A stretch of 64,000 nt of DNA. Origin: Escherichia coli (lineage in GTDB: Bacteria > Pseudomonadota > Gammaproteobacteria > Enterobacterales > Enterobacteriaceae). Where the stretch lies: assembly GCF_003334815.1 (NCBI RefSeq), contig NZ_QOWO01000005.1. One strand, written 5' to 3'. The notes under the pieces were generated by a model. It was given only the letters and a program-made list of their open reading frames with translations, was not told the origin of the DNA and made no database searches. A program made the position numbers and the translations under genes. Below, piece after piece: positions 31,501-37,407 of the stretch. Each line of letters opens with the position of its first letter. The first letter of the stretch is position 1.

Positions 31501-31787
31501 TGTCGGATGCGACGCTATGCGTCTTATCCGACCTACAGTTCAGTTCACCCCGTAGGCCTGATAAGTCGCGTCAGCGGCGCATCAGGCATCGGTTGTCGGA
31601 TGCGACGCTATGCGTCTTATCCGACCTACAGTTCAGTGCACCCCGTAGGCCTGATAAGTCACGTCAGCGGCGCATCAGGCATCGGTTGTCGGATGCGACG
31701 CCATCCGTCTTATCCGACCTACAGTTCAGTGCACCTCGTAGGCCTGATAAGTCGCGTCAGCGACGCATCAGGCATCGGCTGTCGAAT
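31501..31787. repeat. BIME: three tandem 93-bp double-REP units plus the start of a fourth
   Basis: TGTCGGATGCGACGCTATGCGTCTTATCCGACCTACAGTTCAG...GTAGGCCTGATAAGTCGCGTCAGCGGCGCATCAGGCATCGG starts at 31501, 31594 and 31687. TGTCGAAT follows at 31780. Confidence 0.92.
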
Positions 31788-35040: not shown

Positions 35041-35712
35041 ATGATGCAGTTAGTTCACTTATTTATGGATGAAATCACTATGGATCCTTTGCATGCCGTT
35101 TACCTGACCGTAGGACTGTTCGTGATTACTTTTTTTAATCCGGGAGCCAATCTCTTTGTGGTAGTACAAACCAGCCTGGCTTCCGGTCGACGCGCAGGGG
35201 TGCTGACCGGGCTGGGCGTGGCGCTGGGCGATGCATTTTATTCCGGGTTGGGTTTGTTTGGTCTTGCAACGCTAATTACGCAGTGTGAGGAGATTTTTTC
35301 GCTTATCAGAATCGTCGGCGGCGCTTATCTCTTATGGTTTGCGTGGTGCAGCATGCGCCGCCAGTCAACACCGCAAATGAGCACACTACAACAACCGATT
35401 AGCGCCCCCTGGTATGTCTTTTTTCGCCGCGGATTAATTACCGATCTCTCTAACCCGCAAACCGTTTTATTTTTTATCAGTATTTTCTCAGTAACATTAA
35501 ATGCCGAAACACCAACATGGGCACGTTTAATGGCCTGGGCGGGGATTGTGCTCGCATCAATTATCTGGCGAGTTTTTCTTAGTCAGGCGTTTTCTTTGCC
35601 CGCTGTGCGTCGTGCTTATGGGCGTATGCAACGCGTTGCCAGTCGGGTTATTGGTGCAATTATTGGTGTATTCGCGCTACGCCTGATTTACGAAGGGGTG
35701 ACGCAGCGGTGA
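35041..35712 (+). CDS. yahN: LysE/RhtB-family amino-acid exporter
   Basis: 223 aa, about 6 TM, with LysE-type N-terminal helix and FxxGLxxxLSNPQ motif (LITDLSNPQTVLFF). Confidence 0.88.
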   Translation: MMQLVHLFMDEITMDPLHAVYLTVGLFVITFFNPGANLFVVVQTSLASGRRAGVLTGLGVALGDAFYSGLGLFGLATLITQCEEIFSLIRIVGGAYLLWFAWCSMRRQSTPQMSTLQQPISAPWYVFFRRGLITDLSNPQTVLFFISIFSVTLNAETPTWARLMAWAGIVLASIIWRVFLSQAFSLPAVRRAYGRMQRVASRVIGAIIGVFALRLIYEGVTQR

Positions 35713-35728
35713 GCAGATAATTTACTCT

Positions 35729-35974
35729 CTACGTAATCAACCTGATTTGCCGAATCACGGCCATCGGCGATGATAGCCCCCGTAATGCGTGGTCCTTATT
35801 TCCGATAAGTTTACTTGAGTCTTTAGCTTCCCATTTCAGCCCACTCTCCCCTGTGTGGGCTTTTTTCATTGGTCTGCCCCATCCTGAATAGCCAAACAAT
35901 GGCAATGTTCCACTTTGCAGGGATGATAATAAGGGGATCTGATTCAGAAGAGTTTTGAAAAGTTGGACCGCCAT
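35729..35974 (-). CDS. yahM: Uncharacterised 81-aa protein YahM (coding status doubtful)
   Basis: ORF matches the annotated K-12 YahM (MAVQLFKTLLNQIPLL...), but I see no clear Shine-Dalgarno and its ATG lies inside the tRNA-like element described below. Confidence 0.45.
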   Translation of the reverse strand: MAVQLFKTLLNQIPLLSSLQSGTLPLFGYSGWGRPMKKAHTGESGLKWEAKDSSKLIGNKDHALRGLSSPMAVIRQIRLIT

Positions 35975-36044
35975 CGAGGCCTCGAACCCCGTACCATACA
36001 ACAATCCTGGTTGTCGTCTGCTCTTCCTGATGAGCTAATGGCGG
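35964..36044 (-). tRNA. tRNA-like sequence, probably a degenerate tRNA pseudogene (anticodon position reads GGA)
   Basis: Minus strand: CCGCCAT TA GCTC ATCAGGAA GAGC AGACG ACAAC CAGGATT GTTGT ATGGTA CGGGG TTCGAGG CCTCG ATGGCGG T CCA. All four helices pair, and U8, A14, GG in the D loop, the TTCGAG T loop and an encoded CCA are present. Aberrant features are 5 nt between the D and anticodon arms and no U33. Confidence 0.4.
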
Positions 36045-36386
36045 TTTTTGATATGAGCCTTACAGCATATTTTCTGTCAGGCTTGAGTGCGATGCGTAAG
36101 ATACAGAAAAGACCCCACGCAAACATGATGGAATTATGATTTTTTTCATATGAATGTCAACCAACACATTCACAAAACATCTGCATGAGATCATTTTTTA
36201 TACACCGCATGGCTGCGAAACCACTACTGGTGCTTTTTTAAGCGAAGTGTCGCCGATCACAACAAAATATCGGCGAAAAAAGAGATGGAATGCCAGTTGG
36301 CATACAGATATACAGATGAAATGATTACCTGCATTGCGATTCACTCTCAGGTGGAATAACAACTTGCAGGTGGAACCCTTTCTGAA

Positions 36387-37202
36387 CTAAAGAGTGTAGC
36401 GGATTTTAACGTGCTTATTTACAGGATAATATCTGTCACCTAATTCCTGCACTCTATTAGATATCCATTCATTTAATCGCGCATCATCTCTGTATGTTTT
36501 TACGTCCAGAACAGAGAGCAATAACATCACCAGTGATTCAGGAAAAACAGGGTAGATATTTTTTAAGTGTAATAATAATCCATGCGCAAGCGCCTGCTTA
36601 ATGGGCGCGTCTGTCTCCGGAATAGACGACATTTCGCGAAGCCATTTTTCCACATGCATACACTCTTTCCCTTTAGGGAAAATTCTCAGCAAAGGCATAT
36701 GGTATTCAAGAAGAATACATTTGCAATCTGTTCGCACTGAATCGATAAACTGCACTAATTTCTTAAGCCCGGTAAAGCGTCCAGCCTGCACGTTTGCTTT
36801 AATATCAAGAAACGCATCATCCTGGTCATATACCCAAACTGTCCCTTTTTGATTTTCAAGTATGTGAAAAACAAACTTAACCGGGTGATCAGGGTAATCC
36901 ATCCAGTCATAAAATCCAGGGAAATCATTAAACTGCACATTTATGGTGAGTGCGTTATCGTCTGACCACTCACAGTCTCGTACGGCAGCCATGAGATGAA
37001 TGAGTTTGTCGTCATCGACTAAATCATCACGACAATCATAAGGATAATCATAATATTGTTTAATCAAAACCTTGAATATATCGACACAGGAAACCAGGGA
37101 GCTTTTGATATCCTCTGGTAACTGATTGTTTTTAACCGTATTAAGTATGCTTTGTTGCGTATATGGCATCAAATTATTGTGCGGAGCTTTTAATGATATC
37201 AT
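36387..37202 (-). CDS. yahL: Uncharacterised acidic cytoplasmic protein YahL
   Basis: 271-aa ORF in strongly AT-rich DNA. No motif I can assign. Recognised as K-12 YahL. Confidence 0.8.
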   Translation of the reverse strand: MISLKAPHNNLMPYTQQSILNTVKNNQLPEDIKSSLVSCVDIFKVLIKQYYDYPYDCRDDLVDDDKLIHLMAAVRDCEWSDDNALTINVQFNDFPGFYDWMDYPDHPVKFVFHILENQKGTVWVYDQDDAFLDIKANVQAGRFTGLKKLVQFIDSVRTDCKCILLEYHMPLLRIFPKGKECMHVEKWLREMSSIPETDAPIKQALAHGLLLHLKNIYPVFPESLVMLLLSVLDVKTYRDDARLNEWISNRVQELGDRYYPVNKHVKIRYTL

Positions 37203-37369
37203 CGCGATCTCTCTTAAATAAAAATAAACGTCGCAGATAATAAAGCTCTGATTAAACCAGGCACTATCAGAAATCGCTCATAACTAACGTGTGAAGTATT
37301 GTGTACTGGAGGGCGTTAATTTAACAATTTAAATTTACGTTATAGGTTTTACTGCTACTTTGATATTAT

Positions 37370-37407
37370 TTCGCTCTCCTTAACTAAAAAGTTAAGTGGA
37401 GAGCGAA
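37370..37407 (-). terminator. Hairpin downstream of yahK (possible terminator)
   Basis: TTCGCTCTCCTTAAC (37370-37384) pairs with GTTAAG-TG-GAGAGCGAA (37391-37407), giving 15 bp with a 2-nt bulge, 38 nt after the yahK stop. There is no clean U-tract. Confidence 0.4.

Follow-up and report, generated by a model that had tools for sequence, protein, structure and literature searches.

The window analysed here is the whole 64,000-nucleotide (nt) stretch taken from Escherichia coli contig NZ_QOWO01000005.1 (assembly GCF_003334815.1), which corresponds to a reverse-oriented segment of a K-12-like chromosome and includes the genes prpR, yahO, yahN, yahM, yahL and yahK. Between yahL and the convergent yahN, overlapping the annotated start of yahM, lies an 81-nt minus-strand element that is best described as a conserved, previously unannotated pseudo-transfer RNA (pseudo-tRNA) or tRNA-like RNA gene. 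An earlier note, made from the letters of this stretch, had drawn attention to the element and to the AT-rich islet beside it, and the islet is indeed evident as a GC content of 0.33-0.42 across positions 36050-37550. The features of the locus are the following.

35041-35712, plus strand: yahN, convergent with the tRNA-like element
35729-35974, minus strand: annotated yahM open reading frame (ORF), 81 amino acids (aa), not conserved as a coding sequence
35839-35866, plus strand: intrinsic terminator of yahN, GCCCAC-N10-GTGGGC-TTTTTT, read directly from the sequence and lying antisense inside the yahM ORF
35955..35963, minus strand: A/U-rich 3' trailer ACTTTTCAA, from the alignment, with 4 of 9 columns variable
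35964..36044, minus strand: tRNA-like RNA of 81 nt, based on structure, homology, covariation and invariance
36045..36126, minus strand: 5' leader, about 82 nt long, in which an RNAalifold consensus of six lineages predicts hairpins at 36125-36088 and 36084-36055
36133..36160, minus strand: predicted sigma-70 promoter with -35 TTGACA, a 16-nt spacer and -10 CATAAT, matching the consensus at 11 of 12 positions
36387-37202, minus strand: yahL

The letters of the minus strand from 36044 to 35964 agree exactly with the cloverleaf read by the earlier note. The element comprises a 7-base-pair (bp) acceptor stem, a 4-bp D stem and a 5-bp T stem with one G.U pair, closed by the T loop TTCGAGG. It presents the landmarks of a canonical tRNA in these arms (U8, A14, G18G19, A21, the set G53-T54-T55-C56-R57-A58-C61 and an encoded 3' CCA), together with a discriminator U. 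Its parts, all on the minus strand, are arranged as follows.

36044-36038: 5' strand of the acceptor stem
36035-36020: D arm
36019-36018: junction AG
36017-36011, paired with 36004-35998: central stem
36010-36005: loop CCAGGA
35997-35992: variable region AUGGUA
35991-35975: T arm
35974-35968: 3' strand of the acceptor stem
35967: discriminator U
35966-35964: CCA

ARAGORN reported a single tRNA in the entire window, a tRNA-Ser(gga) at 35964..36044 on the minus strand with a score of 105.8, at exactly the coordinates proposed in the earlier note. On 300 random sequences of window composition (19.2 Mb) the program made three calls, none of them above 101.5. The call in the window requires the relaxed spacer rule of ARAGORN and is lost under its strict spacer option. 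The covariance-model check suggested by the earlier note went against the element: RF00005, with a curated threshold of 29 bits, gave no match at the gathering score, and none at E<=10 with either 301 nt or 89 nt of sequence. Other Rfam models (tmRNA, Y RNA-like, viral TLS, mascRNA and others) returned only unrelated, chance-level matches of 9-15 bits at E<=10 in the element and its surroundings. RNAfold recovered the cloverleaf as the minimum-energy structure, but with a z-score of only -1.88 relative to shuffled sequences, which makes thermodynamics alone unconvincing. On the ARAGORN, RNAfold and Rfam tests alone, the case for a tRNA-like element would stay open.

The judgement that the resemblance to a tRNA is not due to chance was borne out by homology to the middle tRNA slot of lambdoid phages. 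A megablast search against complete E. coli genomes returned a 90-kb plasmid matching only the 81-nt element and 8 nt upstream of it, and on this plasmid a feature labelled 'tRNA-OTHER' by PGAP stands between tRNA-Ile and tRNA-Arg. Matches in the phage collection included phiP27 (E=6e-18), mEp460, TL-2011c, PhiR49_2, Evi and Yersinia phages. All the phage matches fall on the central gene of a small cluster of tRNAs, located after the antiterminator Q and before the stx or lysis genes, and labelled in the phiP27 record as ileZ-argN-argO (Ile-X-Arg). The canonical cluster members are 77-nt tRNA-Arg(UCG) genes scoring 55-56 bits on RF00005, a model that canonical phage relatives in general pass at 37-56 bits.

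The acceptor, D and T arms of the element are almost base-for-base those of the canonical phage members, with 76-85% identity to the argN family over the whole element and near-identity in these three arms. The likeness to argN extends through the acceptor from C1-G72 to U7-A66, a same or near-same T arm, the D arm (A14/G18G19/A20/A21), the discriminator U, the encoded CCA and an A at position -1, and about 10 nt of upstream spacer also align. The two differ in that argN has 77 nt, a CUUCGAA loop and 56 bits on RF00005, whereas the window element has 81 nt, a 7-bp/6-nt central hairpin and no match to this model. Further differences from argN are its 2-nt junction, its 6-nt variable region and its solitary position in the chromosome behind a predicted promoter of its own. 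A copy of equal length, with the same AG junction and an ACGAC...GUUGU stem, is found in phiP27, where it is unannotated, in mEp460-like phages, and in plasmid pHX138.261ft_1, where PGAP labels it 'tRNA-OTHER'. The first 33 nt of the element are identical to this phage/plasmid copy and 27 of the last 28 nt match, whereas the central 20 nt differ (ACGAUAACAGG... against AACCAGGAUU...). The element is hence homologous to argN (tRNA-Arg) of the lambdoid/Stx Ile-X-Arg clusters, in line with the tRNA derivation initially proposed, and sequence comparison indicates that it descends from a lambdoid-phage tRNA of the argN family.

The phage surroundings have not accompanied the element. A low-stringency BLAST comparison of 2.7 kb around it with the phage loci detected no homology outside 36055-35964 and no remnants of ileZ, argO, Q or lysis genes, and its neighbours are yahL, yahK and yahN rather than ileZ and argO downstream of Q. 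Searches with tblastn for YahL and YahM in phages returned no match, and the possibility that the islet is a recognisable prophage was rejected.

Copies in other genomes were retrieved with a pattern scan in which the arms were fixed and the central 25-40 nt left free. The scan recovered E. albertii, E. whittamii, E. ruysiae, Escherichia sp. E1V33 and several E. coli, all with an identical 81-mer. Over seven Escherichia lineages, variable columns amount to 0/81 in the element, 29/77 (38%) in the leader and 139/449 (31%) in the yahN coding sequence, and none of the 28 columns of the central arm, loop and 6-nt variable region vary. The block of identity starts about 10 nt before C1 and fades at most 9 nt after the CCA, and its edges coincide with the tRNA ends. 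Since the arms were fixed in the pattern, their invariance between species is conditional on retrieval; the 33 central nt were free, so that their invariance is not an effect of the search, and the same applies to the E. coli population data.

In that population, the identical 81-mer is present in 4822 of 5171 E. coli records (93%), even though the surrounding 701 nt show 1-5% divergence from the window in most of these genomes. The commonest variant (301 of the 348 variant records) belongs to the O157 lineage and converts the sole G.U pair of the T stem into G-C. The other E. coli variants seen alter the CCA to ACA or CTA, one of them occurring in a strain in which yahM and yahN are both pseudogenes. 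The phage 81-nt form lies between ileZ and argO, whereas the exact Escherichia 81-mer is absent from 2.9 million viral contigs, which makes homogenisation by a circulating phage copy unlikely. The suggestion that the tRNA is decayed does not survive these data, given the lack of variable columns against 31-38% in the flanks and a main variant that turns the G.U pair of the T stem into G-C; rather, the column counts show purifying selection on all 81 nt.

The central arm departs from that of any canonical tRNA. RNAfold and the comparison with relatives both favour an arm consisting of the 2-nt junction AG, a 7-bp stem (ACGACAA/UUGUUGU), the 6-nt loop CCAGGA and a 6-nt variable region. Pair probabilities in this register range from 0.70 to 0.96 (about 0.95 for six of the seven pairs, the innermost A-U pair being the weakest at 0.70), with a free energy of -27.0 kcal/mol. 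The register initially adopted, with a 5-nt spacer between the D and anticodon arms, a 5-bp stem and a 7-nt loop, reaches pair probabilities of about 0.03 and a free energy of -24.4 kcal/mol, and is probably wrong. In the family alignment, the element presents the family stem ACGAC/GUUGU lengthened by two A-U pairs. A search of viral and metagenome contigs for more long-arm variants, from which covariation in the extended stem could be judged, gave only two versions.

The observation that the anticodon arm is atypical was correct in either register. The favoured one places a 7-bp stem, a 6-nt loop and a 2-nt junction where a canonical arm is expected, and the alternative has A33, U37 and a 5-nt spacer. 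Neither contains U33, a purine at position 37 or a class II variable arm, and the element does not display an Arg anticodon (UCG, UCU or CCU) in a canonical loop. The lack of U33, of a purine 37 and of a class II variable arm makes normal decoding unlikely, and decoding as a tRNA-Ser especially so. Judging from this predicted structure, the element probably does not decode.

Relatives of the element define a wider family, from which 53 unique sequences were parsed into cloverleaf columns. Acceptor pair 7-66 is C-G in 26 and U-A in 24 of these, and the T-stem pair 51-63 and the central stem likewise covary. Non-canonical central arms on the same body occur in phage Met-X-Thr-Gly clusters (73-74 nt, with 5-6-nt loops of many different sequences), on pESI-like Salmonella megaplasmids and a Cedecea plasmid, and in solitary chromosomal genes of 77-79 nt in Scandinavium, Citrobacter, Pseudescherichia, an Enterobacter sp. 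and other genera. All the non-canonical family forms tested fail RF00005. Across related lineages the loop has 6, 7 or 8 nt and a varied sequence, while the body stays fixed.

The Scandinavium-type chromosomal genes share with the window element the family body, the 2-nt junction, the 6-nt variable region, a non-canonical central arm (with an AUGAC/GUUGU stem), the failure on RF00005, a solitary chromosomal position and strong purifying selection relative to flanks, with 8/79 variable columns, including four loop positions, compared to 48/65 to 94/102 in the flanking sequences. Unlike the window element, they occupy another locus, have a promoter only a few bases upstream and thus a very short leader, a clear intrinsic terminator directly downstream followed by a 74-aa ORF, and a loop that varies between species. 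To our knowledge, these solitary tRNA-like genes have no published description. The existence of at least two independent chromosomal lineages combining a constrained body with a non-canonical or free loop argues that the family works via the RNA body and not the anticodon.

Additional observations were made on these relatives. In 13 Scandinavium-type loci the loop is a T-run of 6-8 nt whose length and sequence vary on a nearly invariant body, and the conserved ORF downstream of these genes (MLEGYFDLD...) has no significant match in Pfam or NCBIfam. In eight phage or prophage loci, the X slot of the Met-X-Thr-Gly clusters has a fixed ACAAC/GTTGT stem and a loop that differs in almost every copy (CGTTAT, CACGAT, CATGGT, CACGGT, TACGAT and CAGGT); these genes are 'tRNA-???' in ARAGORN and undetected by Rfam. 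The S. Infantis plasmid pFSIS1502169 carries a solitary 77-nt relative (locus L167, 3501-3577) with the 6-nt loop CCCGAG and a discriminator A, about 400 nt from adiA and unannotated in the plasmid gene table, and some 137 similar PLSDB records correspond to large conjugative Salmonella plasmids. The commonest phage variant, with 36 copies, is a 77-nt 'tRNA-Lys(UUU)' with C33 and the loop CCTTTAA that scores 37 bits on RF00005.

The sigma-70 promoter lies about 90 nt upstream of the element, with a predicted transcription start site (TSS) near 36126. It is kept in all the Escherichia lineages, in which 3 of its 28 columns vary, compared to 20 of 39 columns just upstream of the -35 element. According to the Reg-Seq preprint, massively parallel reporters revealed an active promoter for yahM, there listed as uncharacterised, with a mapped TSS and IHF as repressor; this is presumably the promoter at 36160-36133. 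In addition, yahM transcripts have been reported as induced in adherent Shiga toxin-producing E. coli, and RNA-seq has revealed convergent, overlapping transcription of yahM and yahN, listed as an excludon in at least half of the samples analysed.

In the consensus fold of the predicted primary transcript, the two leader hairpins are followed by the cloverleaf as a separate domain. The hairpin at 36084-36055 includes two pairs with compensatory changes among Escherichia species, and the last 10 nt or so of the leader (CATATCAAAAA) still resemble the phage ileZ-argN spacer. On the other side, similarity between species collapses past the A/U-rich trailer, which may provide an endonuclease entry site for 3' maturation.

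The conservation of the element contrasts with that of the annotated yahM ORF. The yahM ATG (35974-35972) coincides with the first three bases of ATGGCGG, the 3' acceptor strand of the element. Translation from this codon yields 81 aa only in K-12-like lineages; the frame is limited to 11 aa in O157 and one divergent E. coli and to 49 aa in MY504, encodes unrelated peptides of 14-31 aa in four other Escherichia species, and is almost wholly deleted in E. whittamii and E. ruysiae. The only block of the yahM region kept by E. albertii is the yahN terminator, which the automatic terminator scan missed because its 10-nt loop exceeds the 8-nt limit of the scan. YahM has no match in Pfam, NCBIfam or phages, and YahL returned nothing significant in Pfam/NCBIfam. 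The doubts voiced about yahM as a gene were therefore well placed, its ORF being truncated, unrelated or deleted outside K-12-like lineages. By sequence comparison, yahM is not the selected unit; it is probably misannotated, and most likely a spurious or very young ORF that starts by chance in the acceptor strand. The idea that the T-loop G evolved to create a GAGG ribosome-binding site for yahM was also considered and rejected, the same G being present in relatives that lack this ORF.

The DNA on both sides of the unit formed by the promoter, the element and yahN changes between species. The upstream slot is occupied by yahK-yahL in K-12, by yahK without yahL in E1V33 and some E. coli, and by yahJ in E. 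albertii, and the site behaves as a hotspot for small variable islets. In E. whittamii (locus L032, 1670-6696) and E. ruysiae (locus L039, 121-3986), this slot contains the Zorya type I parts ZorC and ZorD, identified by PADLOC as proteins of 595 aa (E=2e-244) and 1054 aa (E=0), respectively. Elsewhere in the window, Rfam naRNA4 (CssrE, nucleoid-associated noncoding RNA 4) gave five matches above its gathering score, covering positions 4404-4481, 6511-6687, 26705-26781 and 31555-31626.

The earlier note had expected a remnant of tRNA-associated integration at this edge of the islet. No second copy of the 3' half of the element was found in the 64-kb window with up to 3 mismatches, and no integrase lies near it; in the absence of both an integrase and an attachment-type repeat, the element is not read as an attachment site. 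Nor does a remnant of integration agree with the full length of the copy, which retains about 10 nt of 5' flank, or with the phage relatives, whose place is in a late-operon tRNA cluster rather than at an attachment site. The partial tRNA genes described by van der Gulik et al. (2023, PMC9897764) as products of island integration are likewise tRNA-like, detected by gene finders and close to mobile DNA. Those sequences, however, comprise just the 3' part of a tRNA whose complete copy marks the opposite end of the island, whereas the window element is full-length, unpaired and conserved.

Taken together, the data lead us to lean towards the element being a functional, chromosomally fixed, transcribed and non-decoding tRNA mimic of phage origin, with yahM as a spurious or very young ORF, a reading that we regard as somewhat probable. 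Under this model, a phage tRNA of the argN family would have been captured beside yahN in the ancestor of the sampled Escherichia lineages, where it would have acquired or kept a strong sigma-70 promoter, and its anticodon arm would have been remodelled into a 7-bp helix with a 6-nt loop no longer capable of normal decoding. Transcription starting near 36126 would produce the 82-nt structured leader followed by the cloverleaf. RNase P may then cleave at C1 (36044), and an endonuclease may cut in the A/U-rich trailer, followed by exonuclease trimming back to the encoded CCA. General knowledge of tRNA processing suggests that the canonical acceptor/T-arm minihelix, the GTTCGA T loop and the CCA make the element a plausible substrate for RNase P and 3' maturation. 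The product would be a stable 81-nt tRNA mimic, with the remaining transcript reading on antisense to yahN. Its mode of action would be to bind, by way of the tRNA body and the invariant central arm, some partner that recognises tRNAs.

Several observations weigh against this interpretation, in addition to the failure of the element on RF00005. The retrieval pattern required matching arms, and a diverged copy would be missed, for instance if there were one in E. fergusonii, a species that the scan did not recover. The 81-mer is unmatched in 257 of 5426 complete E. coli genomes, and in E. coli DETEC-S792 (locus L166, 3001-3815) an IS1 copy sits inside the element at about position 62; the unmatched genomes and this insertion indicate that the element is dispensable. 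The automatic scan found no intrinsic terminator after the element, unlike in the Scandinavium-type genes. Finally, as the earlier note had supposed, no RNA is annotated at the site, in any of the approximately 70 RefSeq records listed, and the searchable literature yielded no mention of a discrete 81-nt RNA or tRNA-like element at yahM.

An unlikely but credible alternative is that the element operates in cis as a module of a longer RNA, in which RNase P or RNase E cuts at the element and thereby determines where the downstream transcript begins and how stable it is; this transcript would run antisense into yahN and produce a convergent excludon. The 82-nt leader and the lack of a terminator after the element are in keeping with this idea, as are the recurrence of the yahM-yahN excludon in the RNA-seq samples and the position of the element, which in every species faces yahN convergently as its direct neighbour, including those that have lost the spacer. 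A precedent is provided by the tRNA-Other of Bacillus cereus, which resides inside a larger regulatory RNA (PMC3399842). An acceptor/T-arm minihelix would nevertheless suffice for processing, which leaves the invariant central arm, loop and variable region (0/28) unexplained; the downstream RNA is not conserved at all, and relatives in other genera are free-standing promoter-RNA-terminator units.

It is quite improbable that the element is a decoding tRNA with an odd loop, reading UCC (anticodon GGA) or CCU (AGG), or suppressing frameshifts with the 8-nt loop that would result from opening of the innermost A-U pair. ARAGORN assigns the anticodon GGA, the other features of a tRNA, including the CCA, are all present and conserved, 7-nt loops with plausible anticodons occur in several relatives, and the innermost A-U pair is the weakest of the stem. 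Yet no register supplies U33 or a purine 37, the 6-nt loop, 2-nt junction and 6-nt variable region are at odds with decoding, as is the missing RF00005 match, and Ser identity requires a long variable arm that is absent here. Moreover, the shifts in loop length (6, 7 or 8 nt) and sequence on a fixed body among relatives would be intolerable for decoding.

The unit under selection could also be the DNA itself, for instance a site of recombination or attachment with a 6-nt overlap between the halves of the inverted repeat ACAAC/GTTGT, and this would explain the variable islets. Both flanks do vary: on the upstream side there is yahL, yahK, Zorya or nothing, and on the downstream side the yahM region has been replaced or deleted. 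The combination of a fixed family stem with a hypervariable loop is reminiscent of the spacer in the core site of tyrosine recombinases. We consider this highly improbable, because neither an integrase, nor a repeat of the 3' half, nor an island at the tRNA 3' end is found, the variable genes are found on the 5' side, past the promoter, and relatives carry terminators. Furthermore, nothing in a DNA site calls for the joint preservation of G18G19, the GTTCGA T loop, the CCA and the promoter.

A non-functional pseudogene, in which the cloverleaf is merely a historical trace of a decaying prophage tRNA, is strongly disfavoured. The non-canonical anticodon arm, the failed covariance-model searches, the AT-rich and seemingly horizontally acquired region and the loss or disruption of the element in some strains would fit such a remnant, but the absence of variable columns between edges that match the tRNA ends, next to flanks varying at 31-38%, would not, and neither would a dominant polymorphism that preserves structure or the conserved promoter. 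Least probable of the readings weighed, and likewise disfavoured, is conservation as the initiation region of a real yahM gene: in its favour, the T loop supplies a GAGG 5 nt ahead of the ATG at 35974, K-12-like strains have an intact ORF and yahM transcript levels respond to conditions. Against it, the element is identical in O157, MY504, a divergent E. coli and four other species whose ORF is truncated, frameshifted, unrelated or missing, the ORF overlaps just 11 of the 81 nt, and the G that creates the GAGG is shared with relatives devoid of such an ORF.

The favoured reading, a non-decoding tRNA mimic, has a possible parallel in the B. cereus tRNA-Other, a pseudo-tRNA for which deletion and rapid amplification of cDNA ends (RACE) have established a regulatory role (Rogers et al. 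2012, PMC3399842). Both are tRNA-like genes seemingly unfit for translation and located beside horizontally acquired DNA. The tRNA-Other is expressed with a 5' extension, and the window element combines a tRNA-like fold with a predicted 82-nt leader and the reported activity of the yahM promoter. The two have no sequence relationship.

A broader and distinctly unlikely proposition is that the Escherichia element belongs to an undescribed family of non-decoding mimics, derived from a phage tRNA-Arg and spread via lambdoid phages, plasmids and enterobacterial chromosomes, in which selection would hold the body and the central stem while freeing the loop. If true, this pattern would be in keeping with a function as decoy or competitive inhibitor against effectors that target tRNAs, for example anticodon nucleases, colicins and factors of defence or anti-defence. 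The location of the element next to the slot occupied by Zorya in E. whittamii and E. ruysiae would then be a sign of its involvement in the conflict between phages and their hosts.

If the favoured reading is confirmed, yahM (b0327) would have to be re-annotated. K-12 is the best-annotated bacterium, and yet this locus has been catalogued only as a hypothetical protein, while the element is identical in all five Escherichia species from which a copy was recovered. The element would then represent a clear case of a phage tRNA that was domesticated and subsequently diverted from decoding, pointing to a wider gene family that the Rfam and RefSeq annotations examined either miss or label as 'tRNA-OTHER' or 'pseudo'. 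As a single-copy gene with a known promoter in a dispensable locus, it would also provide a tractable model for the study of non-decoding tRNA mimics in bacteria.

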